DNA of 64,000 bases from an uncultured Acidobacteriota bacterium. GTDB lineage: Bacteria; Actinomycetota; Acidimicrobiia; Spongiisociales; ZC4RG35. The DNA lies in NCBI GenBank assembly GCA_963848695.1, contig CAWKEI010000010.1:4905-68904 (forward strand). The letters run 5' to 3'. Shown piece after piece: positions 3,012 to 60,827 of the stretch (position 1 is the stretch's first letter; each line of letters starts with the position of its first letter). Below the pieces are notes generated by a model. The model searched no databases. It was not told where the DNA came from and worked only from the letters and a program-made list of their open reading frames with translations. A program made the position numbers and the translations under genes.

Positions 3012-3779
3012 TTACGTGTCGGGACGAGCTATATCGAAGGTTTCGCGTGCGGGGGCCCCGGTCGGAGCCGGCGCTCTCCGCCCGCCCGACGCCACCCGAT
3101 AGCCCGCCCAGATCAATGTCACCGCGGCGAGCAGCGACAACGCGAAGGCACTCGACTCGCCGAGGGCGAGACCGGTGCCGCCCGACGCTGCCGCCAGCGT
3201 GCCGGCGAGGATGAGCAGGTTCCCCCAGACGATGCGGCGGTTCTTCTTCCAGAATCGGAAGATCGAGACCACCGACAACACGGCCAGGATCGTGGCGCCC
3301 AATGCCCCCCCGATGATGGCGAACAGCCTCGGCCCGAATCCCGAGGCGAACACGTCATGGGGCACCCCGGTCTCAGGCAGGGGATTGGCGAATGGCACGG
3401 TGGCGGTCAGGGTCGTGGAGATGGCGGTGAAGGCGCCGAGCGCGATGGCCATGACATGACCCGACCGCTTCCCGACGACCAGGAACATCGAGCCCAGGGC
3501 CAGGAACGGGATGTTGAGGATGGCGCCGAATAGATAGAAGATTCGGTACATGGGCCCGGTCCAGCCGACGGTGACTCCCAGGAAGAACGCCCAGGTCGCG
3601 ATCGCGAACATCACCATGCCCGTCCCGTATGCCGCGATGTGGGGACGGGGCCGTCTTCGGTAGTCGAGCCAGAGATCGACGGCGAAGATCGACGCTGCCA
3701 GCGCCGCGACAAGGGCCAGAGCCGCATCCACTCCCGCCAGGCTAGAACGAGGCGGAAGCCCCGGCCGACCGGCGATCAA
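3012..3779 (-). CDS. polytopic membrane protein of unknown function, start overlaps ABC ATPase stop (co-transcribed)
   Basis: 255-aa ORF with ~7 hydrophobic segments. A 4-nt overlap with the upstream ATPase gene suggests translational coupling. Confidence 0.5.
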   Translation of the reverse strand: MIAGRPGLPPRSSLAGVDAALALVAALAASIFAVDLWLDYRRRPRPHIAAYGTGMVMFAIATWAFFLGVTVGWTGPMYRIFYLFGAILNIPFLALGSMFLVVGKRSGHVMAIALGAFTAISTTLTATVPFANPLPETGVPHDVFASGFGPRLFAIIGGALGATILAVLSVVSIFRFWKKNRRIVWGNLLILAGTLAAASGGTGLALGESSAFALSLLAAVTLIWAGYRVASGGRRAPAPTGAPARETFDIARPDT

Positions 3780-4798
3780 GACCGCGAGAAGATGCGGGCG
3801 TCGGTGGCGCGGACCCGGGCCGGCTGACCCACCCGGTAGAGGGGACGTGGGCCGATCCTGGCCCGGACCCGGGTGCCCTCGTGGAGGGCGAGCGTCACCA
3901 ACTGGTCATGACCGAAGAACTCGGACCCGGCCACCACTGCATTCGGCGTCTCGCCGAGAGAGATCTGGACGTTCTCCGGTCTGACAATCACGGACACGGT
4001 CCCATGGAGATCGGTCTCGAAGGCGCCAACCGGGGTGTCGACTCTTCCATTGCGCGCTACTGACTCCAGGACATCGGCATCACCCAGGAACTCAGCCACC
4101 CATTGGTCGGCCGGATTCGAGTAGAGATGGCCGGGGGTGTCGGCCTGCAACACGCGCCCTTCCCTCATCACGGCGACGATGTCGGATGTTGCCAGCGCCT
4201 CCTCCTGGTCGTGAGTGACGAACACTGCCGTGGTGCGTGCCTCGGTGAGGATGGTTCGCAGCTCACGGCGCACTCGGTCACGCAAACTGGCGTCGAGGTT
4301 GGAGAACGGCTCGTCGAGGAGGATCACCTCCGGCTTGGGGGCGAGGGCCCGGGCCAGGGCGACGCGCTGTTGTTGCCCGCCGGATAGCTCGTTCGGCATC
4401 CGGCCCTCCAATCCAGTCAATCCGACCAGTTCCAGAACCTCGGCCACACGTGGCCCTCGGTCGCCTCGGGGCAGCCCATAGGCGATGTTCCCGGCGACGG
4501 TCATGTGGGGGAAGAGGGCGTAGTCCTGGAACACCATTCCCACCCGACGCCGGTCCGGGGGGATGAACTCTCCCGGCCCGAGCACGGTCCTGCCATGGAT
4601 CTCGACCGATCCTCCGGCGGTCTCGAAGCCGGCGATGACCCGTAACGCGGTGGTCTTGCCACACCCCGAAGGCCCGAGGATGGTGACAACACCACCCTCC
4701 CAGACGTCCAGGCTGAAATGGTCCAGGGCCACGGCGTCGCCAAAGGACCTGGTCAGGTCCCGGGCGCGGATGGCGAGCCGGTCAGTCGCTGAGCTCAC
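3776..4798 (-). CDS. ABC transporter ATP-binding protein, FbpC/PotA-like with C-terminal TOBE-like domain (iron(III)-type importer)
   Basis: Walker A GPSGCGKTT, signature LSGGQQQRVALARAL, Walker B ILLDEPFSNLD. 340 aa with a C-terminal extension. Confidence 0.85.
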   Translation of the reverse strand: MSSATDRLAIRARDLTRSFGDAVALDHFSLDVWEGGVVTILGPSGCGKTTALRVIAGFETAGGSVEIHGRTVLGPGEFIPPDRRRVGMVFQDYALFPHMTVAGNIAYGLPRGDRGPRVAEVLELVGLTGLEGRMPNELSGGQQQRVALARALAPKPEVILLDEPFSNLDASLRDRVRRELRTILTEARTTAVFVTHDQEEALATSDIVAVMREGRVLQADTPGHLYSNPADQWVAEFLGDADVLESVARNGRVDTPVGAFETDLHGTVSVIVRPENVQISLGETPNAVVAGSEFFGHDQLVTLALHEGTRVRARIGPRPLYRVGQPARVRATDARIFSRS

Positions 4799-11033: not shown

Positions 11034-12116
11034 TCAACCAACGAGGAGCGGGATCTCGACCTCGTCCTGGGCGAGGCCACCGTGGTAGGCCCGAAGCCGC
11101 TTGTCGAACCCAGGGGGAAGGAGCACCTTGCCTGGCGGGGCAAGGAGGAGGGCGTCGCCTGACCTGGCGCGCGCCTCAAGGCCGGGTTCGGCGCCGAATT
11201 GGGTGAGAGGGTCGGTCAGCTCCACCCCGACATGTCGGGCGAGGGCATCGAGCAAATCGGGCTCTCCCCAGACATGAACCCCCCTCGGATCTCCCGCATA
11301 GCGGAGAGAATGGAACGGCTCCTGGCGGATGAGGACCTTGTCATCCTCGTTGTAGTCGATCAGCCCGTGGTCGGCTGTTCCCAGCACGGTGACGTCGGGC
11401 GGCATCCTCGAGACGATCTCCTCCCAGAGGTTGGCGGCGAGACGGACCGCCTCGGCAAACTCCGCAGAGGCGAGCCCATGGACATGGCCGGCGAAGTCGA
11501 CCGGCCAGAAGTACGTGAAGATGAGCCGGTTCGGCTCCGCAGCGAGCTGCACCGTGGCCTCCGCGAGATCGTGTTCGTCCCAGGTGCGTTCGAAGCGAGC
11601 GCCGCGGTAGAGCAAGCGGGAGAGAGGGCTGCCGGCGAAAGGCCCCGGCTGAACCGTGATCGGCTCGATGCCGGCCTGGCGAAGCCGTTCCCAGAGATTG
11701 GGTCGGGCCAGGAACGACCCGTAGTCATGATGGACCGGCTGGCCGGACAGATCCACCCATTTCAAGGTGTTCACCACGCGTCCCGCCTCCTCCAACCAGC
11801 AGAGATGGGAGATGAGACCGTGCTGCCCGGGCGCGAGCCCGGTGGCCACGGTGGCCAGAGCGACACTCGTCGTGGTTGGAAAGGGCGCTCGCAACGTCTC
11901 TCGATGCGATTCGCGCAAGGATCGGGCTGCCTCGTGGGCCAGTTGTGCAGTGCCGAGACCGTCGAACAGGATGAGGACATATGACCGCCCGTCAGGGATC
12001 GACCTGGCGATCGAGGGGTCGAGCGGAAGTGATGGCGAGTTGCCGATCAGCCTTGTCTCGAGCTCCGCGACGAGGTTGACCAGACCTGCGGAGTCTGGAG
12101 AGGGGGCGTCCGCCAT
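11034..12116 (-). CDS. alkaline-phosphatase superfamily protein (type I phosphodiesterase / nucleotide pyrophosphatase-like)
   Basis: Metal-site-like motifs LILFDGLG, FPTTTSVALATVATG (Thr nucleophile region) and VLGTADHGL. Confidence 0.55.
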   Translation of the reverse strand: MADAPSPDSAGLVNLVAELETRLIGNSPSLPLDPSIARSIPDGRSYVLILFDGLGTAQLAHEAARSLRESHRETLRAPFPTTTSVALATVATGLAPGQHGLISHLCWLEEAGRVVNTLKWVDLSGQPVHHDYGSFLARPNLWERLRQAGIEPITVQPGPFAGSPLSRLLYRGARFERTWDEHDLAEATVQLAAEPNRLIFTYFWPVDFAGHVHGLASAEFAEAVRLAANLWEEIVSRMPPDVTVLGTADHGLIDYNEDDKVLIRQEPFHSLRYAGDPRGVHVWGEPDLLDALARHVGVELTDPLTQFGAEPGLEARARSGDALLLAPPGKVLLPPGFDKRLRAYHGGLAQDEVEIPLLVG

Positions 12117-12174
12117 CGATCCAGGCTAGGGCCGGCTCCACAGTTTTTGCCGATGGCAGTTGGAGTTTCCAAAC

Positions 12175-12203
12175 TTCGACGGAAAAGGACCCGTGCGTAT
12201 ACT
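12175..12203 (+). promoter_or_regulatory. candidate sigma-70-type promoter of the nuo operon (TTCGAC-17 nt-TATACT)
   Basis: The -35/-10 hexamers with 17-nt spacing lie ~35 nt upstream of the nuoA ATG, and an AGAGG RBS precedes the start. Confidence 0.3.
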
Positions 12204-12236
12204 CGCCCGCGGTGGTGTCCATCGACCCGCAGAGGC

Positions 12237-12602
12237 ATGAGCCCTTACTTTGAGAGCTATCTGACGGTCGGCGCTTTCGCCGTACTGGGCGCCATCCTGG
12301 TGATGGTGATGCTCGGGGTCGCCGCTGTGCTTCGGCCCACCAATCCCACTACCGCCAAACGCCTCACCTATGAGTGCGGCGTTGACCCGGTCGGCTCAGG
12401 ATGGAGCCAGAGTTACGTCCGCTATTACGTCTACGGGCTCCTCTTCGTCATCTTCGACGTCGAGGCAGTGTTTATCTTCCCGTGGGCAATCGTGATCGAG
12501 CAGTTGGGCACCTTCGGTCTCGTCGAGATGTTCATCTTCATCGACATCCTGATCCTGGGTCTGGTCTACGCCGTTCGCAAGGGAGTGCTCCGGTGGGAGT
12601 AG
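12237..12602 (+). CDS. nuoA: NADH-quinone oxidoreductase subunit A
   Basis: 121-aa 3-TM protein with FPWAIV motif. Start taken at the internal ATG (MSPYFESY) after the promoter. Confidence 0.88.
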
Positions 12603-13090
12603 TCCAGAAGTTCGGGGCCCCGAAGCCGGTGACCTGGCTTCTCAATTGGTCCCGGAAATACTCCTTGTGGCTGTTCCAGTTCGGCCTCGCCTGCTGCGCC
12701 ATCGAGCTGATGGCCGCCTCGGGCCCGCGTTTCGACTTCATGCGGTTCGGGATCATCCCGCTGCCTGCCTCCCCCCGCCAGGCGGACTTGATGGTGGTGG
12801 CGGGCACTGTGACCGACAAGATGGCGCCCGCCATTCGCCGTCTCTACGACCAGATGCCCGATCCGAAATACGTGATCTCGATGGGATCCTGCGCCAACTG
12901 CGGCGGGCCTTATTGGGACTCGTACTCGGTCACCAAGGGGGTCGACCAGGTGATCCCGGTCGATGTCTACGTACCGGGCTGCCCGCCCCGCCCCGAGGCG
13001 CTGATGGACGGGATCGTCTTGCTCCAGCAGAAGATCCAAGGCGAGGACATCAAAGAGAAGTGGAGCAGGCGTGACCTCGAGCCCGTCTGA
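12593..13090 (+). CDS. nuoB: NADH-quinone oxidoreductase subunit B (N2 Fe-S subunit)
   Basis: [16 protein letters not shown] and [11 protein letters not shown] cluster-binding motifs. GTG start overlapping the nuoA stop. Confidence 0.9.
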
Positions 13091-13712
13091 GACCGAGGCT
13101 GCGGACTCGGAGGTTGGGGCCGCAGCCCCGCATCCGCTCCAAGAGTTCGCCGATCATGTGGCCGAGACGGTCGGGGGGTCGGCAACGATCACCTTCGACA
13201 CGGTCAAGGTGGAGGTGAGCCCGGACCATTGGGTATCGGCGCTGACCACGGCACGGGACGACCTGGGGCTCGTCTTCTTCTCCTGGCTCTCCGCCGTGGA
13301 CTGGTCGTCCGAAGTCGAGGTGGGCGACCCATTCCCCGAAGAGGTCGAGGATCGTGTGGAGCTCCTGGCCACGGTGGGCGACATCTCAGAGGGGCGGCGG
13401 GTGACATTCTCCACCACCTTGCCCAAGGAATCGCCCTCAGTCGCCAGCCTGGTCGAGGTCTACGCCGGGGCCAACTGGCACGAACGAGAAGCCCATGAGA
13501 TGTTCGGGATTGGTTTCGATGGGCATCCGAACCTCGCCCATCTCTATTTGCCCGACTCCTTTGAGGGGAATCCCCTGCGCAAGAGCTTTCCCCTTCTCAG
13601 CCGGGAGGTGAAGCCTTGGCCAGGCACCGTCGACGTCGAGAAGATGCCCGGTGACAGCGACGAGGAGGGCGAATCGGCGGACGGCCCCTCGGAAGAGAAC
13701 CCGGAGGCGTGA
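13071..13712 (+). CDS. nuoC: NADH-quinone oxidoreductase subunit C
   Basis: [22 protein letters not shown] and [14 protein letters not shown] motifs. Separate from nuoD (not fused). Confidence 0.85.
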
Positions 13713-13713
13713 C

Positions 13714-14904
13714 GTGGTATTAGATCAGGACCTCGTTCGCCATCTCTCCGAGTCGTCGGTCTCGGTGGAGCTCGAGACCGAGGACATGACTCTCAACATC
13801 GGCCCCCAGCATCCATCGACGCACGGTGTCCTCCGGCTCGTGGCCCGGGTCGACGGTGAGCGTGCCTTCGACATCCAGCCGGTGATCGGATACATGCATC
13901 GCGGGTACGAGAAGCTCTCCGAGGTGAGGACCTACCCCCAGATCACAACCCTCGTCAACCGGATCGACTGGGTATCGGGTTACGCAAACGAGATCCCATT
14001 CGTCGTCGCTGCGGAAAAGCTGCTCGGCCTCGAGGTGCCGGAGAGGGCGCAGTACATCAGGCTGATTCTCACCGAGATGGCCCGGATCTCCTCACATCTC
14101 ATCTTCATGGCCTCCTATCCGCTCGAATTGGGGGCGGCGACCCCTCTCTTCTTCGCCCTCAGGGAAAGGGAGCGAGTGCTCGATCTCCTCGAAGGTGTGA
14201 CCGGGGGCAGGTTCCACCCCAACTTCAACCGGATCGGCGGGGTCAAGCCCGCGTACGGGTCTGGCTCGAGCACCCGAAAAGTCATCCAGGACCTCCCAGC
14301 CGGGTTCTTCGCCGAGACCCGGGAGGCGATGGACAAGGTGTTGGAGGCGGTCGATGAGCTCGAGCAGCTGGTCGCCGACAACGAGATCATCCTGGCCCGC
14401 ACCAAAGGCGTCGGGGTCCTGCCTGCCGATGTGGCCGCGGCGTACGGAGTATCGGGCCCCAATCTCCGCGCCTCAGGCGTCGGTTTCGACCTGCGCAAGG
14501 TCGAGAACTACCTGCCATACCACTTGTTCGATTTCGAGATCCCGGTCGGGGAGAACGGGGACTGCTGGGATCGGTGGCATGTGCGCCTCCTCGAGATCCG
14601 CCAGTCGGTCCGAATCGTGCAGCAAGCCGTCGACGGCATCCCGTCGGGGCCGCTTCAGGCCAAGGTGCCCAAGGTCATCAAAGTCCCTCAGGGAGAGACC
14701 TACGTGAGGGCGGAGAACCCAAAGGGGGAGATGGGGTACTACCTCGTGTCCAATGGGAACCAGGGGCCATACCGGCTGAAGATCCGCTCCGCCAGCTTCT
14801 CCAACATCTCCATCCTCCCCTGGATCCTGGAGGGCGTGCTGGTCCCCGACATCATCGCCATCATGGGATCGCTGGATTTTGTGCTCGGGGACGTGGATCG
14901 ATGA
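13714..14904 (+). CDS. nuoD: NADH-quinone oxidoreductase subunit D
   Basis: NIGPQHPSTHGVLRL N-terminal signature, ~397 aa. GTG start just after the nuoC stop. Confidence 0.9.
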   Translation: MVLDQDLVRHLSESSVSVELETEDMTLNIGPQHPSTHGVLRLVARVDGERAFDIQPVIGYMHRGYEKLSEVRTYPQITTLVNRIDWVSGYANEIPFVVAAEKLLGLEVPERAQYIRLILTEMARISSHLIFMASYPLELGAATPLFFALRERERVLDLLEGVTGGRFHPNFNRIGGVKPAYGSGSSTRKVIQDLPAGFFAETREAMDKVLEAVDELEQLVADNEIILARTKGVGVLPADVAAAYGVSGPNLRASGVGFDLRKVENYLPYHLFDFEIPVGENGDCWDRWHVRLLEIRQSVRIVQQAVDGIPSGPLQAKVPKVIKVPQGETYVRAENPKGEMGYYLVSNGNQGPYRLKIRSASFSNISILPWILEGVLVPDIIAIMGSLDFVLGDVDR

Positions 14905-15908
14905 TTGAGTTCGTAACGGAGCTCTTCTCCAACTTCTGGGTCTCGCTGGCCGGGAAGCTGCTCCTAGTCGCCCTGATGATCCCGCTGGTGGGAATGGTCA
15001 TCGGCTTCGCCGAGATGAAGCTCTCCGCCAAGATGCAGGCCCGGGTCGGTCCCTATTTCGCCGGCGGGCGATGGGGGTGGGCACAGCTCATCGCCGATGG
15101 CGTCAAGTTCTTCCAGAAGGAGGACCTGGTCCCGGACGAAGCCGACCGCCCGGTGTTCAAGCTCGCCCCGGTGTTGGTGCTGGTGAGCACGGTCGCCCTG
15201 CTTGTGGTCATCCCATTCGGCCCGGACCTGATCTTCCGGGATCTGTCCGTTGGAATCTTCTTTGCCCTCGCCATCTCGTCGTTGAGCACCGTCGGCATCC
15301 TCATGGCCGGGTGGTCTTCGGGGAACAAGTACTCCTTGATGGGCGGGCTGCGTGCGGCCGGGCAGCTGATCGCCTATGAGTTGCCACTCGTGCTGGCCGT
15401 CATCGGGTCGGTCATCCTCGCCGGGACCATGAGCATGAGCGGGATCGTGGAAGCTCAGATTGCGGCTGGCTACCCCTACGTGATCCTCCAATTCATCGGC
15501 TTCGGGGTATTCATGATCGCCGCGCTTGCGGAGCTGAGCCGGATTCCCTTCGACATGCCGATCGCCGAGTCGGAACTGGTGATGGGCTATCTCACGGAGT
15601 ACTCGGGCTTCCGCTTCCTATTCTTCTTCCTCGCCGAGTTCGCCAACATGTTCTCCCTCTCGGCGATCGCGGTCACCCTGTTCCTCGGCGGGTACTGGCT
15701 GCCGGGCATACCCGAGGATGCCCTGGCCTATGCCGGGCCCGTCATCCTGCTCGGCAAGACGTTCCTTCTCGTCTTCACCATGATCTGGTTTCGCTGGACC
15801 TTCCCCCGGTTCCGTGAGGACCAACTGCAGAATCTGGCCTGGAAGTGGCTCATCCCCTTGGCCCTGGCCAACATCATCCTCACCGGGGCCTTCAAGGTGT
15901 ACTTGTGA
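14901..15908 (+). CDS. nuoH: NADH-quinone oxidoreductase subunit H, follows nuoD directly (no nuoE/F/G)
   Basis: [16 protein letters not shown]...[32 protein letters not shown], 8-TM. ATGA overlap with the nuoD stop. Confidence 0.9.
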
Positions 15909-15940
15909 CGACGACGAACAACCGTCGTGTGCTGCCCGGC

Positions 15941-16405
15941 ATGGGAATGGCCAAGGGGCTGTGGGTGACCATCTACACGATGTTCCGCACCATCTTCCGC
16001 CCCGGGAAGTACCTGGCCACGGTCAACTACCCCAAGGTCAAGGAGACCCCGGTGCCCCGGGCCCGAGGGGTGATCGCCCTCGACCAGGAGGCGTGCACGG
16101 TGTGCATGCTCTGCGCCCGAAACTGCCCCGACTGGTGCATCTATATCGAGGGACACAAGGAGGAGAAGGCGCCGGACAAGCCCGGCGGCCGGATCAAGGT
16201 TCGCAACACCCTCGACCGGTTCGATATCGACTACGCCCTGTGCATGTACTGCGGAATCTGTGTCGAGGTCTGCCCCTTCGACGCCCTGTTCTGGTCGCCG
16301 GAGTACGAGTACTCGGAGACCCATATGGGTGAGATGCTCCATGACATGGATCGGCTCCAGGACTGGTTGGAGACGGTGCCGGCAGACCCGGAGCTGGAGA
16401 AGTGA
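15941..16405 (+). CDS. nuoI: NADH-quinone oxidoreductase subunit I (2x[4Fe-4S])
   Basis: Two ferredoxin motifs [12 protein letters not shown] and [12 protein letters not shown]. Start may be the GTG 12 nt upstream. Confidence 0.88.
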
Positions 16406-16953
16406 GTTTGGGTGACTGGGTCTCGGCTCCGATCAACTGGGTTTTCGTCGTGGTCGGGGGTTTGACCCTGTTCTCATCGATCAAGGTGGTGACCTCCAAG
16501 AACGTGGTCCACGCCGCCCTGTACCTGATCGGCGCCCTCGGTGGCACCGCCGTCTTGTTCCTGATGCTCTCGGCCGAGTTCGTCGCATGGGTCCTGGTCC
16601 TGGTCTACATCGGTGCAGTCTTGGTCCTCTTCCTCTTCGGGATCATGATCACCCGAGCTCCCACCGGGAAGGACGTGGGGCTGGACTCGCCGAAGAAGGT
16701 ATTGCCCGCGATTCTCTCCGCAACCACCTTCGTCCTCCTCTCCTGGGCCTCCATCGATGGTTTCGGGTCCACCGAGATCGAAGGGCTGGGTGAGGCAACT
16801 TCGACCGAAGTGCTCGGGCTGTCGCTGTTGGGGCGGTTTGTCATCCCATTCGAGGTGGTGTCCTTCGTTCTCCTCGCCGCGCTCGTCGGCGGGATCACCA
16901 TCGCCCGGCGTGATCTGAGCCCTCTCGAAGAAGAACAGCGGGGGGCGGTCTGA
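16402..16953 (+). CDS. nuoJ: NADH-quinone oxidoreductase subunit J
   Basis: 183-aa membrane protein with NuoJ-like N-terminus. GTGA overlap with the nuoI stop. Confidence 0.85.
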
Positions 16954-17258
16954 TGTTGCTCAACCAGTTCCTGATCCTGGCGGCGGCGATGTTCTCCCTC
17001 GGCATCTATGGCCTGCTCGTCCGGCGCAACATCGTGTTGATCCTGCTCTCGGTGGAACTGATGCTGGCCGCGGTAAACATCAACTTGATCGCCTTCGAGT
17101 CGGTCCTCAGATCCCCCGATGCCATCGGCCAGGTCTTCACGGTGTTCGTCATCACAGTGGCCGCCGCCGAGGTCGGGATCGGGCTGGCCATCGTCCTGAT
17201 GATCTTCCGCAATAGGAAGTCTGCAAACGTCGACGAGCTCAATCTGATGAGATGGTGA
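16953..17258 (+). CDS. nuoK: NADH-quinone oxidoreductase subunit K
   Basis: 101 aa, [26 protein letters not shown]...ELMLAAVNINLIAF. Confidence 0.9.
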   Translation: MLLNQFLILAAAMFSLGIYGLLVRRNIVLILLSVELMLAAVNINLIAFESVLRSPDAIGQVFTVFVITVAAAEVGIGLAIVLMIFRNRKSANVDELNLMRW

Positions 17259-17270
17259 AAGTGGCTGTGT

Positions 17271-17372
17271 TTGATTGCCGGCCGACTTCGCCCTTCGGCA
17301 ACCCTCATGTCGCGAGGTGGGCCTCCTATCGCGTCATCACACCTCAGGGCGAACAGACGCCGGTCGGCCGGG
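17271..17372. repeat. ~100-nt hairpin-forming intergenic repeat, copy A, inserted between nuoK and nuoL
   Basis: The 24-nt 5' block TTGATTGCCGGCCGACTTCGCCCT and the 3' block GGGCGAACAGACGCCGGTCGGCCGG are shared with 55883..55986. The blocks can pair (CCGGCCGAC/GTCGGCCGG, TTCGCCC/GGGCGAA) around a ~52-nt variable loop. Confidence 0.5.
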
Positions 17373-17397
17373 GCTTCCGCCTCGCTGGAGATCGACC

Positions 17398-19425
17398 GTG
17401 AGCTGGATCATCGCGACTGAGGCGGAGCACGCGGTCGAGGCCGGTGTGACCGGTGGGTTCTGGGTGGACACCGCCGGGATCATGCTGCTCCTCCCCCTCG
17501 TCGCCTTCCTGCTCATCCTCGCTGTCGGGAAGAGGATGAAGTACCACGGAGCCGAGATCGCCATCGCGGCGCTCGCCATCAACAGCCTCTGGGCCACCGT
17601 CCTGTTCGTCATGAACATGACCGACGGCGTCCTCGCCCAGGAAACCTTCGAGATCGCCTCGATCGGGAGCAATCTCGTCTTCGAGCTGGGATGGGTGGTC
17701 GACGGTCTGTCGATCATGATGTACTTCTTGGTCAACGTGGTCGGCCTGATCGTGTTCATCTACGCGGTCGGCTACATGAAGGGCGACATCAGGGTCGATT
17801 GGTTCTTTGCCGCTTTCTCCCTTTTTGCCGGCTCGATGCTCATCCTGGTGGGCGCCCCCAACCTGATCCAGCTGATCATCGGGTGGGAGGGGGTCGGTCT
17901 CGCTTCCTACTTCCTGATCGGCTTCTACTGGGAGGACATGGCCAACGTGAACGCGGGCAACAAGGCGTTCATGGTCAACAAAGTGGCCGACGTCGGGCTG
18001 ATCCTGGGGGCGATCATCCTCGGGCTCGCCATCGGCACGTTTGACTTCTTCGACATGAGCACGGCTGCCTTCGAGCACTCCGAGCCCCTTGGCGCAGTTG
18101 CCGTCGTCGGTGGAGCCCTGCTCTTCTTTGGAGCGATGGGCAAGAGTGCCCAATTCCCCCTTCACATCTGGCTCCCCGACGCGATGGCCGGCCCGACCCC
18201 GGTCTCGGCGCTGATGCACGCGGCCACCATGGTCACTGCCGGGATCTATCTGATGGGTCGGGTGTTCCCCCTCTTCGAGTACCTCGCCTTCGACATCAGG
18301 CCCTGGATGGTGGCGATCGGGGCCATCACGCTCTTCGGCGTCGGTCTCCTCGCCCTGGTGGCCGACGACATCAAGAAGGTGCTCGCCTATTCCACCGTCT
18401 CCCAGCTCGGGTACATGATGACCGCGGTGGCAGCGGGCGGCTACACGGCCGGCCTCTTCCACCTCTTCACCCACGCCTTCTTCAAGGCACTTCTCTTCCT
18501 TGGGGCCGGGGCGGTGATCCACGCCGTCCATTCCAACAACATGAGCGACATGGGAGGTCTGCGCAAGGCGATGCCCCGCACCTACTGGACCTTTGTCGTC
18601 GGCTCCCTCTCTCTAGCTGGGATCATCCCCCTGGCCGGGTTCTGGTCCAAGGACGAGATCCTGGTTGCCCTGGGTCACGAGGGTTACGTCGCCGTGATGT
18701 GGATCGCCATCGCCGGCGCCTTCGTCACGGCTTTCTACATGACCCGAGCGGTGGCCCTCACCTTCCACGGGGAGTACAAGGGCCAGGGCCACCCCCACGA
18801 GGCACCCGCCATCATGACCGTGCCTTTGGTCTTCTTGGCCATACCGTCGATCCTCTTCGGGTTTTTCAATGTCCCCGGCTGGGAGATCCCCGGCATCGGG
18901 AACTTCAGCCAATGGCTGGCGGTGCGGGTAGTCCCGATGGGCGACGAGCACGCCGAGGCGATCGATCTGGTTCTGGCCGGGAGCGGGTTGTTCGCCGCGC
19001 TCCTCGGCATCGCTCTGGGGTGGATGGTCTGGGGCAAGGACCGGGCGACTCAGGCGGAGCGGGACCGCTTCGAGGTCCCGGCGCTCTATCCGCTGCTGCG
19101 CAACAAGTACTACGTCGACGACCTCGCCGATGGGATCACCGCCGGGACGATGGGCCCGGTGGCCCGGTTCATCAACTGGGTCAACGACTACGTGATCGAC
19201 TGGATCGTCAACGGTGTGGCCTTCCTCACCAAGGGTCTGGGCTCTTTCGTCTACGGCGTGGTCGATCAGCGCGGGGTCGACGGTGTGATCCATGGTCTTG
19301 GCGCCGGGGCGGACGGCGCCGGATCGGCCCTACGGCGATTGCAGACGGGCCGGATTCAGCAGTACGCGGCGTCGTTCGTCGGGGGCGCCCTGGTCTTGAT
19401 CGTCCTGTTCGTGTTCGTGATATAG
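17398..19425 (+). CDS. nuoL: NADH-quinone oxidoreductase subunit L (antiporter-like)
   Basis: 676 aa from GTG (VSWIIATEAE). The upstream part of track ORF 17275.. is translation of the repeat element. Typical NuoL TM architecture with C-terminal long helix region. Confidence 0.9.
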   Translation: MSWIIATEAEHAVEAGVTGGFWVDTAGIMLLLPLVAFLLILAVGKRMKYHGAEIAIAALAINSLWATVLFVMNMTDGVLAQETFEIASIGSNLVFELGWVVDGLSIMMYFLVNVVGLIVFIYAVGYMKGDIRVDWFFAAFSLFAGSMLILVGAPNLIQLIIGWEGVGLASYFLIGFYWEDMANVNAGNKAFMVNKVADVGLILGAIILGLAIGTFDFFDMSTAAFEHSEPLGAVAVVGGALLFFGAMGKSAQFPLHIWLPDAMAGPTPVSALMHAATMVTAGIYLMGRVFPLFEYLAFDIRPWMVAIGAITLFGVGLLALVADDIKKVLAYSTVSQLGYMMTAVAAGGYTAGLFHLFTHAFFKALLFLGAGAVIHAVHSNNMSDMGGLRKAMPRTYWTFVVGSLSLAGIIPLAGFWSKDEILVALGHEGYVAVMWIAIAGAFVTAFYMTRAVALTFHGEYKGQGHPHEAPAIMTVPLVFLAIPSILFGFFNVPGWEIPGIGNFSQWLAVRVVPMGDEHAEAIDLVLAGSGLFAALLGIALGWMVWGKDRATQAERDRFEVPALYPLLRNKYYVDDLADGITAGTMGPVARFINWVNDYVIDWIVNGVAFLTKGLGSFVYGVVDQRGVDGVIHGLGAGADGAGSALRRLQTGRIQQYAASFVGGALVLIVLFVFVI

Positions 19426-19441
19426 GAGAGGTAGAGAGCAA

Positions 19442-21058
19442 ATGGAATTGTTCGAAACGTGGGCCCTCACCCTCATCGTGTTCTTGCCGCTGGCCGGTGT
19501 GCTCCTGATCGGCATCATCCCGAAGACGAACGAGATGGCCCTGAAAGGCACGGCACTGCTGGTCAGCGTGGCCGCGTTTCTTCTCTCCCTGGCGGTGATC
19601 TCACAATTCGATTTCTCGGGGGTCCCCTACAACACCTACCAGTTCGAAGTCAACGAAACCTGGATCGGGGCGATCAACGCCAACTATCACCTCGGTGTCG
19701 ACGGGATCAGCCTTCCCCTCCTCGTCCTCTCCACATTCGTGATGGTGCTGTCGGTCATCTACAGCTGGAACCACTGGGAGGAGCCGCACAACCCCAAGGC
19801 CTTCCTGATCCTCATGCTGATCCTCGCCACCGGGCTCAACGGCACCTTCCTCGCCCTCGATCTGGTCCTCTTCTTCATTTTCTTCGAAGTGGTGCTGCTC
19901 CCGATGTACTTCATGATCGGGATCTGGGGCGATCGCAGCCCGCGGGCGATCCCCGGTTACGGGCGTGAGGTGCAGACCCGTCTCTACGCCGCGATCAAGT
20001 TCTTCCTCTTCACACTGTTCGGTTCCGCCTTCATGCTGCTGGGGTTCCTCGCCCTCTATTTCGAGTCGGGCAACTCGGGCGGCGAGCGCACCTTCGACAT
20101 CACGCAACTGACCGAGCTCGGGGCCTCCGGCGCCTTCACCGGGAGATTCGCCTTCCTGGTCTTTTTCGCCATGTTCCTCGGGTTCGCGGTGAAGGTCCCG
20201 ATGTGGCCACTCCACACCTGGCTGCCCGACGCCCATACCGCTGCACCGACGGTGGGGTCGGTCCTCCTCGCCGCCATCATGCTGAAGCTCGGGTCATACG
20301 GATTCATCAGGATCTCCCTGCCCATCCTCCCCGAGGAGGCGGCCAGTTGGGCCCCCGCCATAGCCATCCTGGCCGTGATCGGCATCATCTATGGGTCGCT
20401 GGCCTGTCTCGCTCAGACCGACATGAAGCGGCTGATCGCGTTCTCCTCGGTCGGTCACATGGGCTTTGTGATGCTCGGGATCGCGACGATGACCGATGTC
20501 GGCATCAACGCCGCCATCATCGGGATGGTGGCCCATGGGCTCATCACCGGACTGCTCTTCTTCCTGGCCGGCTCGATGTCACATCGGTACCACACGAGAG
20601 AGATGTCCCGTCTCGGCGGCAACATGAAGCTGATGCCGGTCATGGGTGGGATCCTGGCCTTCACCGCCATGGCTTCCCTCGGGCTCCCCGGGTTGGCCGG
20701 CTTCTGGGGTGAGTTCATGTCGCTGATCGGCGCCTACAACCCCTTGGCGGGGCTGTCGTTGGGTGTTTTCCGCACCGCGATGGTGATCGGCGCGATCGGG
20801 ACGGTGCTGACGGCCGCGTACATGCTCTACCTGCTCCAGCAGGTCAACCTCGGTGAGCCGGGGGAGGAGTGGCAGGGACACAAGTTCCACGACGTCGACC
20901 GTTTCGAGATGACGGCGTGGGTCCCACTCATCGTCCTGATCGTGGTGATCGGTTTCTATCCCAAGGTCATCTTCAACGCCACCACGGATTCCGTCGTGTC
21001 GCTCGTGGACATGGTGTTCGGTTCCGACACCGTGGCATCCGTTGGGCGGGGAGGCTGA
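19442..21058 (+). CDS. nuoM: NADH-quinone oxidoreductase subunit M
   Basis: 538-aa antiporter-like subunit with conserved WLPDAHTAAPTVGSVLLAAIMLKLG segment. Confidence 0.9.
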   Translation: MELFETWALTLIVFLPLAGVLLIGIIPKTNEMALKGTALLVSVAAFLLSLAVISQFDFSGVPYNTYQFEVNETWIGAINANYHLGVDGISLPLLVLSTFVMVLSVIYSWNHWEEPHNPKAFLILMLILATGLNGTFLALDLVLFFIFFEVVLLPMYFMIGIWGDRSPRAIPGYGREVQTRLYAAIKFFLFTLFGSAFMLLGFLALYFESGNSGGERTFDITQLTELGASGAFTGRFAFLVFFAMFLGFAVKVPMWPLHTWLPDAHTAAPTVGSVLLAAIMLKLGSYGFIRISLPILPEEAASWAPAIAILAVIGIIYGSLACLAQTDMKRLIAFSSVGHMGFVMLGIATMTDVGINAAIIGMVAHGLITGLLFFLAGSMSHRYHTREMSRLGGNMKLMPVMGGILAFTAMASLGLPGLAGFWGEFMSLIGAYNPLAGLSLGVFRTAMVIGAIGTVLTAAYMLYLLQQVNLGEPGEEWQGHKFHDVDRFEMTAWVPLIVLIVVIGFYPKVIFNATTDSVVSLVDMVFGSDTVASVGRGG

Positions 21059-21061
21059 TCC

Positions 21062-22546
21062 TTGCCGTTCGAGATCGACTATCTGGCGCTCGCTCCGGAG
21101 CTGGTGGTGGTGGCCACCATGCTCGGTGTATTCGCCCTCGATCTCGTCCTTCCCCGGTCCAAGAAGTTCTGGACGGCGACCCTGGCAGTTGCGGGCACCG
21201 CTCTGGCCGCTGTCCCGCTGGTGATCCTGGCCGCCGAAGGGACGGTCAGGTCGATGTTCGACGGCTCCTATGTCGTCGACGAATTCGCAGTGATCCTCAA
21301 AGGCGTCTTCATCGTCTCGGCGTACATCGTGCTCCTTATGTCGCACCACTACATCGAGTCCGATCGCTACTACCAGGGCGAGTACTACTTCCTGCTGCTG
21401 GCGTCGGTGCTCGGCTCGCTGGTGATGGCATCGTCTCGCGACCTCATCATCCTGTTCATCGGCCTCGAGCTCACCACCGGCCCGCTCTATCTGCTCGCTG
21501 GTTGGAGGAAGGGCGACGCCAAGTCCAACGAAGCCTCGATGAAGTACTTCATCCTCGGGGTTCTCTCCACCGCGATCCTGCTCTACGGCATGTCGCTGCT
21601 GTACGGGCTCACCGGTGAGGTCACTTTCGCCGGTCTCGCCGAAGCGACCGCCGGCCTCGCCGACGAGCCGATCATGGTGGTGGCCCTCTTCGGGCTGATC
21701 GTCGGGTTCGGATTCAAGATCTCGGCGGTTCCGTTCCACTTCTGGGCACCCGACACGTATGAGGGCGCTCCCACCCCGGTGGCCGCCTATCTATCGGTCA
21801 ACTCGAAGGCAGCCGGCTTCGTCGCCTTCCTCCTGATCATGTACCAGGCATTGCCCGACATCTCCGAGGTGTGGGCGCCGGCCTTGTGGATCCTGGCGGT
21901 GGCCTCGATGACGGTCGGCAATCTGGCGGCTCTGCGCCAGACCAACATCGTCAGGCTGCTCGCCTATTCGTCCATCGCCCAGGCCGGGTTCATGCTGGTC
22001 CCCTTCGCCTCGGCCGCCGTGGCCGGCGCCGACCTGGCCGAGGCGTTTTCGGCGACCCTGGTCTACCTGGTGATCTATGCCGTGATGAACCTGGGGGCAT
22101 TCGCCGTGGTCATCGCCGGGGCGAGGAAGACCCGATCCGGAGAGATAGCGGATTGGGCGGGCCTCGCCCAGGTCGACGTCAGGCTGGGTGTCCTCGTGGC
22201 GGTGTTCTTCTTCAGTCTCGCCGGCATCCCGCCCCTGGCGGGCTGGTTCGCCAAGTTCGCCATGTTCCGCTCGGTGATCATCGCCGGCGGTACCGCCACA
22301 GTGGTCCTCGCCGCCATTGCCGCGGTGAACTCGGTGATCGCGTTCTACTACTACGCCCGGGTGGTGAAGTCGGTCTGGCTCGACGACCCGATCCGCGAAT
22401 TCGCTCCTGAGGCCGAGGCGGCGCCGGCCGGCTCGCTCCGGCTGGCCCTGCTGGTGTCTCTGACGATCACGGTCCTGGTCGGGTTCTTCCCGGCGATCGC
22501 CACTTTCATCGGAGAAGCCAGCCGGGTCATCGCCAGCGGCGGCTGA
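21062..22546 (+). CDS. nuoN: NADH-quinone oxidoreductase subunit N
   Basis: 494-aa antiporter-like subunit with FHFWAPDTYEGAPTPVAAYLSV motif. Last gene of the operon. Confidence 0.9.
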   Translation: MPFEIDYLALAPELVVVATMLGVFALDLVLPRSKKFWTATLAVAGTALAAVPLVILAAEGTVRSMFDGSYVVDEFAVILKGVFIVSAYIVLLMSHHYIESDRYYQGEYYFLLLASVLGSLVMASSRDLIILFIGLELTTGPLYLLAGWRKGDAKSNEASMKYFILGVLSTAILLYGMSLLYGLTGEVTFAGLAEATAGLADEPIMVVALFGLIVGFGFKISAVPFHFWAPDTYEGAPTPVAAYLSVNSKAAGFVAFLLIMYQALPDISEVWAPALWILAVASMTVGNLAALRQTNIVRLLAYSSIAQAGFMLVPFASAAVAGADLAEAFSATLVYLVIYAVMNLGAFAVVIAGARKTRSGEIADWAGLAQVDVRLGVLVAVFFFSLAGIPPLAGWFAKFAMFRSVIIAGGTATVVLAAIAAVNSVIAFYYYARVVKSVWLDDPIREFAPEAEAAPAGSLRLALLVSLTITVLVGFFPAIATFIGEASRVIASGG

Positions 22547-31076: not shown

Positions 31077-31198
31077 AGCGTGCTGGAAGTGTCCGGAATC
31101 GTGAGACGAGGCGGTAGCCCCGGCCGACCGGCGTCTGTTTGCCCGACGTCAACAGCTTGGATCGGGTCGGCCCTTCCGTGGTCCCCGGCTCCGAGGAC

Positions 31199-32764
31199 AT
31201 GAGTCCCGACGGAGACACACGGGCAAAGTCGGCCGGCAGTGAAACAGTTCTGGTGCTCGACTTTGGCGCCCAATACGCCCAGCTGATCGCGCGACGGGTG
31301 CGAGAGAGTCATGTTCGGTCTGAGATCGTCTCCCGGGAGATCAGCCGTGAAGAGATCAGGAGTCGCAACCCGATCGGTCTCATCCTCTCCGGCGGGCCGG
31401 CATCGGTGTATGCAGCGGATGCCTATCGGATGGATCCCGCCATCCTCGAAATGGGGATTCCGGTGCTCGGGATTTGTTACGGCCACCAACTTCTGGCCGA
31501 TCTCGCCGGGGGAACGGTGGCCAACACCGGTAGCGCCGAATACGGGAACACCTCTTTGGAGATGACCGGGGATTCGGTGCTGCTGAAAGACCTTCCCAAG
31601 CAGCAGCAGGTCTGGATGTCGCATCAAGACCAGGTGACCGAGCCCCCGGAAGGATTTGTCGCGGTCGCCACCTCCGATGGTGCCCGGGTGGCGGCGATGG
31701 AGGATCGCGATCGAGGGCTGTATGGGGTCCAGTTCCACCCCGAGGTCGCCCACACCCCCAGGGGCGCCGAGATCCTGAGACGCTTCCTCTATGACGTGTG
31801 CGGCGCCGCCCCGTCGTGGACCTCCCATTCGATCATCGAATCACAGGTCGAGTCGATCAGAGCCCAGGTCGGGGATGGGAAGGTGATCTGTGGCCTGTCC
31901 GGGGGAGTCGACTCTGCGGTGGCCGCCGCCCTCGTCCACGAGGCGATCGGTGACCAGCTCACCTGCATATTCGTCGATCACGGCCTGCTGCGGTCTGGGG
32001 AGGCGGAGCAGGTTGAGGAGACCTTCCGCTCCCATTTCGAGGTCGATTTCGTCCACGTCAAGGCGGCCGATCGGTTTCTCGAGCTCCTCGCTGGTGTCAT
32101 CGATCCCGAGCAGAAGCGCCGGATCATCGGCGAGACGTTCATCCGAGTCTTCGAGGAGGCGGTTGGGCCTCTAGGTGACGCCCGCTTCCTGGTCCAGGGA
32201 ACGCTGTACCCCGACGTGATCGAGTCGGGGTCGGCCAGCGCGGCGACGATCAAGACTCATCACAACGTCGGCGGCCTGCCCGACGACATGAAGTTCGAGC
32301 TGGTCGAGCCGCTGCGCGATCTGTTCAAGGACGAGGTGAGGGCGATTGGGGAAGAGCTGGGGCTGCCTGAGGAGATCGTGTGGCGCCAGCCTTTCCCCGG
32401 GCCGGGGCTTGCGGTGCGGGTGATCGGCGAGGTGACCCGGGAGCGACTGGAGCTGCTCCGAGCCGCCGACCTGATCGTGACCGAGGAGATCAAACGGGCT
32501 GGTCTCTACCGTGAGATCTGGCAGGCATTCGCCGTTCTCCCCTCGGTCCGGACGGTTGGAGTCCAAGGGGATCTCCGCACCTACGCGTATCCACTGGTGG
32601 TTCGGGCCGTCACCTCCGAGGATGCCATGACGGCGGATTGGGCCCGATTGCCCTACGAAGTCCTGGAGCGGATCTCCAGCAGGGTGATCAACGAGGTCCC
32701 CGGGATAAACCGGGTCGCCTACGACATCTCGAGCAAACCACCCGCCACCATCGAGTGGGAATAG
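31199..32764 (+). CDS. guaA: GMP synthase (glutamine-hydrolysing)
   Basis: GATase ICYGHQLL Cys motif, PP-loop [11 protein letters not shown]-terminal dimerisation domain ending ...IEWE. Confidence 0.9.
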
Positions 32765-32885
32765 GAGAGTTCTCCCCGCATCAACCGGGGGTTGCCGAAG
32801 GGCGAAGTGGGCCGGCAACAACAGAGGCGAGCTTTCAGTACGTATGTTGAGTTGCCGATAAGACCTGACAAGTCCAGGGAGCCAG

Positions 32886-55886: not shown

Positions 55887-56021
55887 TTGCCGGCCGACTT
55901 CGCCCTGGAGCGCCACCCCGGCCGCATGACCAACTCTGTTTAGCCGGACGGGCACGGTCTTGGGCGAACAGACGCCCGGTCGGCTGAGGGTGCCGCACGA
56001 AGGCAAGGCGTTGGCAATCAA
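55883..56021. repeat. ~140-nt hairpin-forming intergenic repeat, copy B, with 9-bp terminal inverted repeats TTGATTGCC / GGCAATCAA (MITE-like)
   Basis: Shares the 24-nt 5' block and the GGGCGAACAGACGCC(C)GGTCGGC 3' block with copy A at 17271..17372. Lies between convergent genes and its ends overlap both stop codons. Confidence 0.5.
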
Positions 56022-59266: not shown

Positions 59267-59658
59267 GCCGGCATCGTCTCGTGAATCCAGGCGACCTGGC
59301 GCCGGCCCTTGGCTTCTCCCATGGCGCCGTTCCGGCCGATGGTCGGACCATCTACGTCGCCGGCCAAACCGGTCACTATCAAGACATGACCATCGACGAT
59401 GGGATCGTCGAACAGTTCGCCCGGGCCTGTCGTGCGGTGGCCACCGTGATCGAAGAGGCGGGAGGGGCGCCGGACGATTTGGTATCGATGACGATCTACA
59501 CGACCGATGTCACCGGATACCAGGGGGCTCTGGGGCCGATCGGGGAGGCTTATCGGGAGGTGTTCGGCAAGCACTTCCCGCCGATGGCCCTGATTGGGGT
59601 CGCCGAGCTCTTCGACCCCAAGGCGAAGGTGGAGCTGGTCTGTGTCGCGGTGGTTTGA
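59263..59658 (+). CDS. RidA/YjgF family reactive-intermediate deaminase
   Basis: ~131 aa, YVAGQTG...DMTIY..D RidA pattern. 4-nt overlap with the crotonase gene. Confidence 0.8.
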   Translation: MSRHRLVNPGDLAPALGFSHGAVPADGRTIYVAGQTGHYQDMTIDDGIVEQFARACRAVATVIEEAGGAPDDLVSMTIYTTDVTGYQGALGPIGEAYREVFGKHFPPMALIGVAELFDPKAKVELVCVAVV

Positions 59659-59702
59659 AAACGGGGTGCCGCTCGGCCGGGGCTGCCGCTCCGAGGCAAG
59701 AC

Positions 59703-60827
59703 CTAGAGCAGCTCCAGGAGACGGTCGACGTCTTCTTCGTCGTGATAGACCCCGAAGCCGATGCGGAGCCGGTCACCGCGGAAGTCGGTGATGACTCCCT
59801 TGTCGTGCAGTTGCTGGTAGATCTCTCCGGCGCTGTCGGACCGGAAGGTGAGGAAGTTCCCCCTTCGGCCGGCGTCGCTGACCAACAATTCGCCCAGTGG
59901 CGGGTTGCCGCCGAGGAACCTCTCCTGGAGAGAGACGGCATGGCGGTGGATGTCGGAAGGGGTGACTCCCTCGGACTCGAGCCATTCCAGCACCGCCTCC
60001 ATTCGATAGATCCCCGATGGGTCGAAGGTGGCCCCGAAGAATCTGGATCCGTCGGAGCCATATGGGATGACCTCGCTGACACCCGATTCGAGCTGGCCAA
60101 AGCCGGCATACCAACCGGTATCGAGGGGTCTTGGGCCATACCCGGGAGGCGAATGCAGAAAGCAAGCGCCCTCGCCCGCCATGGCGTATTTGTACCCGCC
60201 GGCCAGGAAGAAGACCCGGTCCTGGATCGCCCCCAGATTGACGGGCAGGGCCATGAAGGCGTGATACCCGTCGATGACGATGAAGGTGCGGTTCTCCGGG
60301 ACCGATGAGACGACCTGGTCGAGGTCGGGCACCGCGAACCCCGAGTCGAACAGCACCTGGCTCAGATAGATCAGGTCATGGGCCCCGGCCCTGGCCTCCC
60401 GGGTGAATCGGTCGCCGAACGACTCGAATGGCTCGGTCGGGATTCGATCGACGATGGCGAGCCCGGATTCCTCCCATCGCCGCGACTGCCGGTGGAAAGA
60501 GTGGAATTCGGCGTCGGTCGACAGGACGCGAACGGGTGGCTCGAGACAGGAGAAGATCCGGAGTAGGAACGAGTGGGTATTCGGCCCAAAGGCGAGGGTT
60601 TCGGGGTCGGCTAGACCGAGGATGTCGGCGACTCTCGAACCGGCGCCTGGGATCACTTGGGCGAAGATGTGCTCCCACTTGTCGTCCATCATCTCAGCCG
60701 CGTCGAGCCAGGCTTGTTGCTGTGCATCGAAGCTGATATCCGGCCAGGGATGGTGGGAGTGCGCCGCGAAATGAAGAAGATCCGGTCTGGCCCCGAGGAA
60801 CCGGGAGAAGTGAGGCTTGAGGTTCAT
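59703..60827 (-). CDS. kynU: kynureninase (PLP-dependent, class V aminotransferase fold)
   Basis: LAGGYKYAMAGEGACFLHS segment with the PLP-lysine in the YKY context, 374 aa. 4-nt overlap with the TDO gene. Confidence 0.65.
   Translation of the reverse strand: MNLKPHFSRFLGARPDLLHFAAHSHHPWPDISFDAQQQAWLDAAEMMDDKWEHIFAQVIPGAGSRVADILGLADPETLAFGPNTHSFLLRIFSCLEPPVRVLSTDAEFHSFHRQSRRWEESGLAIVDRIPTEPFESFGDRFTREARAGAHDLIYLSQVLFDSGFAVPDLDQVVSSVPENRTFIVIDGYHAFMALPVNLGAIQDRVFFLAGGYKYAMAGEGACFLHSPPGYGPRPLDTGWYAGFGQLESGVSEVIPYGSDGSRFFGATFDPSGIYRMEAVLEWLESEGVTPSDIHRHAVSLQERFLGGNPPLGELLVSDAGRRGNFLTFRSDSAGEIYQQLHDKGVITDFRGDRLRIGFGVYHDEEDVDRLLELL

Follow-up and report, generated by a model that had tools for sequence, protein, structure and literature searches.

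A hairpin-forming interspersed repeat as the probable origin of the nuoK-nuoL spacer in an Acidimicrobiia nuo operon

The nuoK-nuoL spacer

We analyzed the spacer between nuoK and nuoL in a 64,000-nucleotide stretch of DNA (the window) from an uncultured bacterium deposited under the title Acidobacteriota and placed by GTDB in the Acidimicrobiia (assembly GCA_963848695.1, contig CAWKEI010000010.1, positions 4,905 to 68,904, forward strand). The evidence given below makes it likely that this spacer arose when a single copy of an interspersed repeat inserted here, a non-autonomous, hairpin-forming element of REP/REPIN/MITE-like kind that is abundant in a lineage of Acidimicrobiia, and that the operon tolerates it. 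The junction comprises the following features.

16953..17258, + strand: nuoK, 101 aa, from the open reading frame list; stop TGA 17256-17258; PF00420 (NuoK)
17259..17397, + strand: nuoK-nuoL spacer, 139 nt
17261..17401, + strand: bridging frame of 46 codons; its GTG 17261 lies 2 nt past the nuoK stop and its TGA 17399-17401 overlaps the nuoL GTG 17398 (GTGA)
17387..17390, + strand: GGAG, Shine-Dalgarno-like, 7 nt upstream of the nuoL start, in or at the 3' tail of the element
17398..19425, + strand: nuoL, 675 aa, start GTG 17398; Pfam PF00662 and PF00361

Proteins named Acidimicrobiia match the window NuoK (PF00420) at 94-96% identity, and a look-up of this NuoK itself gave no record. No stop interrupts the nuoL frame from 17275 onward, and homology places the start at GTG 17398, because the resulting 675 aa equal the length of the relatives' NuoL, whose N-terminal MTWVVATEAEHAVE aligns with VSWIIATEAEHAVE of the window protein. 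The gap reported in an earlier note made from the sequence alone is real, at 139 nt instead of 140; the other nuo junctions in the window, which that note described as overlapping or abutting, overlap or have gaps of at most 16 nt. The nuo cluster as a whole (~12100-22546; also found in the fetched locus L125, 1-8306) has the order nuoB-C-D-H-I-J-K-L-M-N, with nuoD directly overlapping nuoH, and we assign it to an 11-subunit-type complex I because the operon lacks the nuoE/F/G module. The spacer region contains no promoter-like site, and there is no terminator-like site in 16900-17700: the hairpin described below is followed by GGGGCUUCCGCC, and not directly by the U-tract that, together with a GC-rich hairpin, defines an intrinsic terminator.

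A repeated and covarying hairpin

A blastn comparison of the spacer with the window revealed further copies whose ends match and whose interiors do not. With the matches of a covariance model added, the 64 kb contain three full copies and three remnants. The model was built from 28 copies, and the boundaries of the copy in the nuo operon (copy A) were set from information content and tandem junctions. Copy A consists of a 5' flank TTTGATTG, the arms of two stems (P1 and P2), an interior, a 3' bulge and a tail GGGGCTTCCGCCTCG, arranged as follows.

17270..17385, + strand: repeat copy A; covariance-model hit 17270-17397, 116 bits, E 7e-26
17278..17287, + strand: P1 5' arm CCGGCCGACT, that is CCGGCCGAC(T), partner 17362-17371; nearly invariant, with 3 compensatory cells
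17288..17294, + strand: P2 5' arm TCGCCCT, partner 17346-17352
17295..17345, + strand: interior, 51 nt, largely variable among copies and of three size classes, beginning with semi-conserved TCGGCAACCCTCA
17346..17352, + strand: P2 3' arm AGGGCGA
17353..17361, + strand: 9-nt unpaired 3' bulge ACAGACGCC, at least 90% conserved in all copies
17362..17371, + strand: P1 3' arm GGTCGGCCGG, that is (G)GTCGGCCGG

The arms that the earlier note had proposed are present and pair with each other, but they do not enclose a free 52-nt loop: the interior measures 51 nt and is partly conserved, with CGGCAACCCTCA near its 5' side common to many copies. The element is roughly 120 bases long, and its family consensus reads (GCTGyyy)TTnATTG in the 5' flank and GGGGCTnCCGC..AGGT in the tail (end ..GGnnAGGT). 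P1, an unpaired TT, ACAGACGCC and GGGGCTnCCGC are nearly invariant across copies. The outermost 7-14 nt of each side are conserved, yet they are not inverted copies of each other; the 9-10 bp inverted repeat of P1 is subterminal.

Folding energy and comparative evidence were evaluated separately. The fold of the whole spacer has z = +0.32, no better than shuffled sequences, while the element alone folds at -44.6 kcal/mol with z between -1.6 and -2.5; thermodynamic stability alone is weak evidence in DNA of 65% G+C. Across 53 aligned copies, 96.9% of the cells in paired positions are standard pairs. Double-sided changes occur in all 7 pairs of P2 (52 distinct copies), including a compensatory C>T / G>A change between copies A and B, and in 13 pairs overall, a value matched by none of 500 shuffles. 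When the 3' partner was slid by 1-3 columns as a control, at most 47% of the cells remained paired. Repetition and covariation together indicate that the hairpin is more than a product of chance, and the covariation among copies, on which the earlier note had staked the structure in advance, is strong.

The two strands fold alike as RNA (mean z of -2.1 for the sense and -2.0 for the antisense strand), and pairing in P2 is almost exclusively Watson-Crick: its ~470 cells contain 8 G-U pairs, compared with 4 A-C mismatches. This strand symmetry and the rarity of G-U, together with the antisense copies described below and the lack of a promoter or terminator, favor selection on the palindrome itself, either as a single strand of either polarity or as a cruciform, over a strand-specific riboregulator. 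A scan of the whole window against Rfam 15, which includes the nuoG motif, riboswitches and ribozymes, gave no match at gathering thresholds, and a permissive scan around the spacer (E <= 10) returned only snoRNA noise with E of about 1-7.

Several other structures were considered for copy A and rejected. Pairing of interior GCGAGGTGG (17312-17320) with tail CCGCCTCGC (17377-17385) was chosen by the minimum-energy fold of the whole spacer and is not common to other copies. A pseudoknot or anti-Shine-Dalgarno pairing of interior ACCCUCA with GAGG of the tail shows, as judged by eye, no covariation across the alignment rows. The hammerhead-like CUGAUGAG at 17245-17252 belongs to the nuoK coding sequence (LMRW), and other copies lack it. 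An integron attC site was dismissed from the sequence for want of R'/R'' boxes, and a SECIS element after UGA was dismissed on the grounds that many copies carry TAA or TAG and the upstream genes truly end there.

Copies in the window and in other genomes

The remaining copies in the window are listed here.

31094..31244, - strand: copy B, long-interior class; covariance model 85.5 bits; antisense, between an IMPDH-like gene and guaA
55882..56013, + strand: copy C, with a degenerate P1 3' arm; covariance model 59.8 bits
32789..32818, - strand: remnant D, found by blastn; left arm and start of the interior only, 97% identical to copy A over 30 nt, just past the guaA stop
3735..3780, - strand: remnant E, covariance model 26 bits; keeps the 5' flank, the tail and the P1 arms, which are fused; P2 and the interior have been lost
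59569..59706, + strand: weak remnant F, covariance model 21 bits and blastn; only the right arm and tail are recognizable, from ~59668

Outside the window, an exact 18-mer of the right arm was scanned over one genome per species. Among the 120 matches listed, at least ~46 are true copies, marked by a preceding AACAGA and by a left arm 60-107 nt upstream; the others are chance matches or fall in a conserved actinomycete coding region. In Streptomyces and Mycobacteriales loci (L003, L005, L009, L013, L019 and others) the 18-mer, CGCCGGTCGGCCGGGGCT, lies inside the coding sequence for ..FDSMRT(I/L)A-RRSAGAG-EYLTG.. and is unrelated to the repeat. The covariance model found 50 copies in 43 Acidimicrobiia loci, several of them not picked by the 18-mer, with E-values down to 1e-26; the homologous copies for which the earlier note had called were thus collected, by blastn and covariance model, from the window and 43 loci. 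All copies are intergenic or overlap gene ends only, and tandem clusters occur.

Some of the metagenome-assembled genomes (MAGs) that carry the element are MFD-bin assemblies titled 'uncultured Acidobacteriota' (L007, L014, L028, L030, L041-L043, L059, L061, L070, L093, L094, L103, L112, L113). The genes that flank the element in them share synteny and 80-96% identity with Acidimicrobiia MAG loci, so that these titles are unreliable and look wrong; a spread of the family across phyla was dropped as an explanation for this reason, and we treat the family as Acidimicrobiia-specific. The element was not found in the viral, phage and plasmid collections, and carriage by phages or plasmids was set aside accordingly. 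A literature search by sequence strings returned unrelated primer matches only. The family is one not described before, of a well-known bacterial repeat kind.

The same junction in relatives

The earlier note had also proposed that nuoK-nuoL spacing be compared in related genomes, and in close relatives this comparison found either a 2-nt junction or unrelated repeats in place of the element. In L116, L125-127 and L131-134, whose NuoK is 94-96% identical to that of the window, the nuoK stop is followed by 2 nt and the nuoL start (TAG GG ATG). In L117-124 and L128-130 the junction holds 109-121-nt inserts of a different hairpin repeat, with stems of heptamer repeats, in which the covariance model finds no copy of the present family. 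Because relatives this close have either a 2-nt junction or unrelated hairpin repeats, we conclude that the nuo insertion is recent and dispensable.

In L116 and L119, nuoD-H, I-J and J-K are likewise occupied by the heptamer-stem family. Inserts of this family lie at L116 1671-1767, 3285-3369 and 3922-4000, at L119 2159-2252, 2805-2913 and 3220-3340, and at L128 4307-4415. These inserts begin with GCTCGCTnCGCTC, build their stems from GGTACTG.. or TCTACGT.. and end in GGAG plus the start codon; at K-L, I-J and D-H a bridging frame stops on or next to the following start codon. Two of the K-L inserts share the N-terminal peptide MARS(I/L)RSL(A/T)VLG with several synonymous differences.

The present family does occur at nuoK-nuoL in a more distant relative. 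In L135, a metagenome contig whose NuoK is 85% identical, two tandem copies lie on the minus strand at 1-245, and in front of each is a diverged duplicate of the nuoL 5' end, covering its first 6-8 codons (GTGGGCTGGATCGTCGCGAG / ATGACCACCTGGATCCTCGCGAC). A TGA that overlaps the next ATG closes the first frame, and the locus ends before the real nuoL; in gene tables, the closest relatives of L135 have gaps of 97-103 nt. Recurrence is seen at other sites as well: the junction between rplN (L14) and rplX (L24) carries the family in L023 (1626-1777), L063 (2070-2196) and L094 (5987-6115), with different P2 and interior size classes, and the element is found at the same ABC-transporter 3' end in L032 and in L042, in opposite orientations. 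An in-place inversion at the latter site was rejected, the two copies being no more alike than random pairs and independent insertion equally likely. Taken together, the pattern at nuoK-nuoL, rplN-rplX and the ABC-transporter 3' end is what repeated independent insertion would be expected to leave, with nuoK-nuoL as an apparent hot spot.

Gene context and the bridging reading frame

To describe the landing sites quantitatively, we tabulated the genes adjoining 51 copies. On the 5' side, 22 of the 51 follow a co-oriented gene whose stop lies 3-23 nt ahead of P1, and 5 copies adjoin divergent starts; on the 3' side, 15 adjoin convergent gene ends and 12 adjoin co-oriented starts. The family occurs in both orientations relative to genes, with copy B and the copies in L042, L070 and L073 antisense. 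In about 10 of the 22 co-oriented gene ends, the stop codon is the TGA or TAA within the element's own TTGATTG or CTAATTG. Two cases lie in the window: in copy C, TGA 55884-55886 in the element's 5' TCTTGATTG is the stop codon of a CoA_binding_2 gene, and in remnant E, TGA 3772-3774 (minus strand) in the 5' TCTTGATTG is that of an ABC-transporter ATPase gene. The last codons of both genes are supplied by the repeat.

Where a co-oriented gene follows, the distance from GGGGCT to its start is 22 to 38 nt, and a GGAG/GAGG motif precedes the start. RTGA forms the start in 6-7 of 9 such copies, with a frame that stays open across the whole element and stops on this TGA. Copy A shows this design, as do the relatives' unrelated inserts and L135, and its GTG 17261 sits where relatives have the nuoL start. 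The bridging frame, the RTGA overlap and the GGAG 7 nt upstream suggest that translational coupling from nuoK to nuoL has been kept and not broken.

Copies lie in very short gaps between genes, either at gene 3' ends or at translation starts of co-transcribed genes. For the nuo operon we envisage the following. The GTG 2 nt past the nuoK stop would be the old nuoL start, now opening a 46-codon frame through the hairpin; this frame would end at the TGA overlapping the present nuoL GTG (a -4 overlap), with GGAG 7 nt upstream. Ribosomes would probably still pass from nuoK to nuoL and would unfold the hairpin while translating. We infer this hand-over from the arrangement of frames and signals, and the bridging frame itself is probably not a functional protein.

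Flanks and mobility

If the element is mobile, its flanks might preserve a trace of the insertion mechanism. The best flanking direct repeat averages 7.3 nt in length, compared with 6.2 nt for mismatched controls. Duplications of 9-24 nt occur at varying positions in a few copies, and in some of these the duplication is long and includes the Shine-Dalgarno/start region (L073, 20 nt; L023, ~24 nt; L057, ~20 nt; L135, 20-23 nt). In L023, the stretch of ~24 nt that carries a Shine-Dalgarno motif and the rplX start is duplicated on both sides of the element. The flanking repeats are mostly control-like, and long and variable in a few copies, a pattern expected neither from a DDE transposase with a fixed stagger nor from Y1 transposition, which makes no duplication.

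Three candidate signatures of transposition were discarded. A fixed target-site duplication has no support in the flanks, no transposase recurs in the 8-kb neighborhoods, and an ISDra2-like TTGAT target does not agree with a flank that varies (TTGAT, CTAAT, TTCTT, TCTAT) and whose conservation continues upstream as GCTGyyy. PATEs have a fixed 4-5 nt 5' target and no duplication; here the third base of the 5' flank TTnATTG varies, and some copies have flanking duplications.

Discussion

Weighing the explanations

We have presented evidence that the nuoK-nuoL spacer is occupied by a dispersed repeat that is absent from the same junction in close relatives, is found in both orientations and folds equally well on both strands. 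This favors the alternative that the earlier note had mentioned last, a tolerated MITE, and the orientations, the equal folding, the rarity of G-U and the lack of a U-tract or Rfam match speak for a mobile DNA palindrome over a riboregulator dedicated to nuo. Tolerance within the operon would follow from the retention of a ribosome-binding site and a bridging frame for nuoL. Several points weigh against this interpretation. No transposase or other recurrent gene was found in the 8-kb neighborhoods of the copies, and no autonomous parent element with the same ends turned up in the fetched loci (pattern scans <=600 bases), so that we infer mobility solely from distribution. There is no fixed-length target duplication, the flanking direct repeats ranging from none to ~24 nt. 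The orientation bias is moderate (22 sense against 15 antisense gene ends), and this bias and the conserved unpaired bases could reflect a role at the RNA level or in protein binding. Translation of the bridging frame is predicted from frame geometry, and the estimated chance of a 46-codon open frame in one given frame at this G+C is ~0.3. Finally, the copy counts cover the 64-kb window and the fetched loci of Acidimicrobiia MAGs.

The main functional alternative, which the earlier note had put first as RNA processing, attenuation or uncoupling of the distal genes, is a dedicated cis-acting RNA of the nuo transcript (a processing site, 3'-exonuclease barrier or attenuator) that sets the ratio of NuoA-K to the antiporter-like NuoL/M/N. 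REP and ERIC/Correia-type hairpins can stabilize upstream mRNA segments or undergo RNase III cleavage, and the hairpin studied here is stable at -44.6 kcal/mol, lies in sense orientation within an operon, is maintained by covariation and belongs to a family biased to positions just 3' of co-oriented genes. Yet close relatives manage with a 2-nt spacer, other copies stand at unrelated genes and in antisense, the strands fold equally with few G-U pairs, no U-tract terminator follows, and Rfam gives no match even at E <= 10; we regard this alternative as quite improbable. A structure of -44 kcal/mol in the operon transcript may affect decay, and such a side effect on nuo mRNA is possible but unsupported; a regulatory role is neither needed nor specific. 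The same open frame that suggests coupling could instead encode a real 46-aa small protein (17261-17398), given a start 2 nt past the nuoK stop, a stop overlapping the nuoL start, and frames of 36-40 codons in the same position in the relatives' other inserts, two of them with a shared N-terminal peptide. The window peptide, however, is dictated by the repeat sequence and shares only its first two residues with the relatives' peptides, copies differ in length by non-multiples of three and lie in other frames and orientations, and close relatives have no such gene, which leaves the small protein very unlikely. A chance origin of the inverted repeat in GC-rich spacer DNA agrees with the z of +0.32 for the whole spacer, but it is refuted by dozens of homologous copies with compensatory changes and by covariance-model E-values down to 1e-26, and we give it practically no credence.

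A more specific version of mobility is that the element derives from an IS200/IS605-type sequence (a PATE) or is a REP/REPIN, mobilized in single-stranded form by a Y1 (HUH) transposase or RAYT recognizing the hairpin and the conserved bulge. TTGAT is the target of ISDra2, and the 5' flank of the family is often TTGAT; however, since this flank is variable and conservation extends upstream into GCTGyyy, TTGAT is not a clean target site. Covarying stems with conserved unpaired nucleotides fit recognition of folded single strands, and the absence of a fixed target duplication, the position of copies outside genes, often between convergent genes, and the tandem clusters are also as expected. Against these stand the lack of a GTAG or terminal CGTC tag, the lack of a Y1 transposase near any copy (8-kb neighborhoods only) and the long flanking duplications of some copies, which a Y1 mechanism does not make. 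REP superfamilies and RAYT/TIRYT, with their GTAG/CGTC tag, have been described (PMC3733652), and this also speaks for such an origin; on balance we find it unlikely.

Relation to known repeats

The hairpin MITEs (Correia/NEMIS of Neisseria, ERIC/IRU of enterobacteria, RUP/BOX, SMAG) resemble the present family in being ~100-150 bp long, in having inverted ends that fold in mRNA and in inserting between co-transcribed genes. Their hairpins can alter transcript stability. Those families carry defined terminal inverted repeats together with short target duplications of fixed length, and they belong to other phyla. In the present family the inverted repeat of P1 is subterminal and flank duplications are absent or of variable length; no sequence relationship to those families was found, and the fixed short target-site duplication of DDE-derived MITEs is not seen here. 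The nuoG RNA motif (Rfam RF01748, enterobacterial) is likewise a conserved hairpin in a nuo operon transcript, but it is single-copy, operon-specific and from another junction and phylum, and gave no match in the Rfam scans of the window.

MIRUs are not known to form long hairpins, and their orientation is strict. They resemble our element as actinobacterial intergenic repeats within operons that form tandem arrays and carry a frame ending 4 nt into the downstream start, as seen here in copy A, in the 6-7 of 9 copies noted above and in L135. Unlike MIRUs, the present family does not keep a single orientation, many copies being convergent or antisense; the comparison is by description only, between hosts in the Acidimicrobiia and in Mycobacterium. 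In the passages of PMC12548453 that cite Supply et al. 1997, MIRUs are said to insert at start codons with an internal ORF coupled at -4 nt to the downstream gene, and the insertion is described as nearly neutral, with translation passed on.

The likeness to REP/BIME/REPIN sequences is broader. Like them, the present family consists of short, GC-rich, imperfect palindromes in many extragenic copies, with conserved inverted arms, a long hairpin, a less conserved spacer and compensatory changes; it is enriched at gene 3' ends and between convergent genes, forms clusters and tandem copies, and is variably present among relatives. It differs in having no GTAG or CGTC tag at either end (a single GACG, the reverse complement of CGTC, lies inside the bulge ACAGACGCC), in stem and loop sizes outside the described families, in the asymmetry of its arms, the 3' one bearing the conserved 9-nt bulge, in its conserved 3' tail, and in copies that adjoin or overlap stop and start codons. 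No protein family recurs beside the copies in the 8-kb neighborhoods. The Acidimicrobiia are absent from the phyla listed for REPs in PMC3733652. For movement, REP/RAYT and TIRYT systems are the nearest described framework, with the tag missing here.

Implications

On this reading the gap is a recent, dispensable repeat insertion, and the nuo operon needs no special regulatory story. What the analysis adds is an abundant undescribed repeat family in uncultured soil Acidimicrobiia and, in relatives, a second, heptamer-stem family, both of which repeatedly colonize the tightest junctions of essential operons. They offer a test bed for how translational coupling tolerates large hairpins and for how such elements find their sites, and possible strain-typing markers in metagenomes; the covariance model can be used to mask or annotate the elements, which avoids confusion with riboswitches or small genes.

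A bolder proposal, which we advance speculatively and consider doubtful, is that these are class-wide 'self-insulating' mobile hairpins that home to translation boundaries of packed, highly expressed operons (nuo, ribosomal protein, guaBA). They would home to Shine-Dalgarno/start regions and stop-codon-proximal DNA, and insertion would duplicate a variable 7-24-nt stretch of the start region. The element would bring its own stop (TGA/TAA in TTGATTG) and a Shine-Dalgarno-like tail, so that hand-over could proceed by termination-reinitiation, and a putative enzyme would recognize the invariant P1 stem and the unpaired ACAGACGCC in a folded single strand. If this were true, duplications of variable length would indicate a mechanism that differs from classical DDE or Y1 transposition.

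Further observations on individual copies

At 31077-31260, the guaA frame is open through the inverted copy B, with a candidate ATG at ~31200 inside the element, and GuaA may now begin with ~17 residues that copy B encodes. At 32765-32790, immediately past the guaA stop, a small GC hairpin (CCCCG-CATCAAC-CGGGG) precedes remnant D, whose left arm can pair locally (TTGCCG..CGGCAA). Copy C borders the end of a convergent acyl-CoA dehydrogenase gene on its other side, and its 3' flank (55996-56022) holds GGCAATCAAAG, the inverted complement of the element's own 5' CTTTGATTGCC, which would add ~9 pairs to the hairpin. In L077 (~3430-3460), an inverted solo left arm lies just before the ATG of the next gene.

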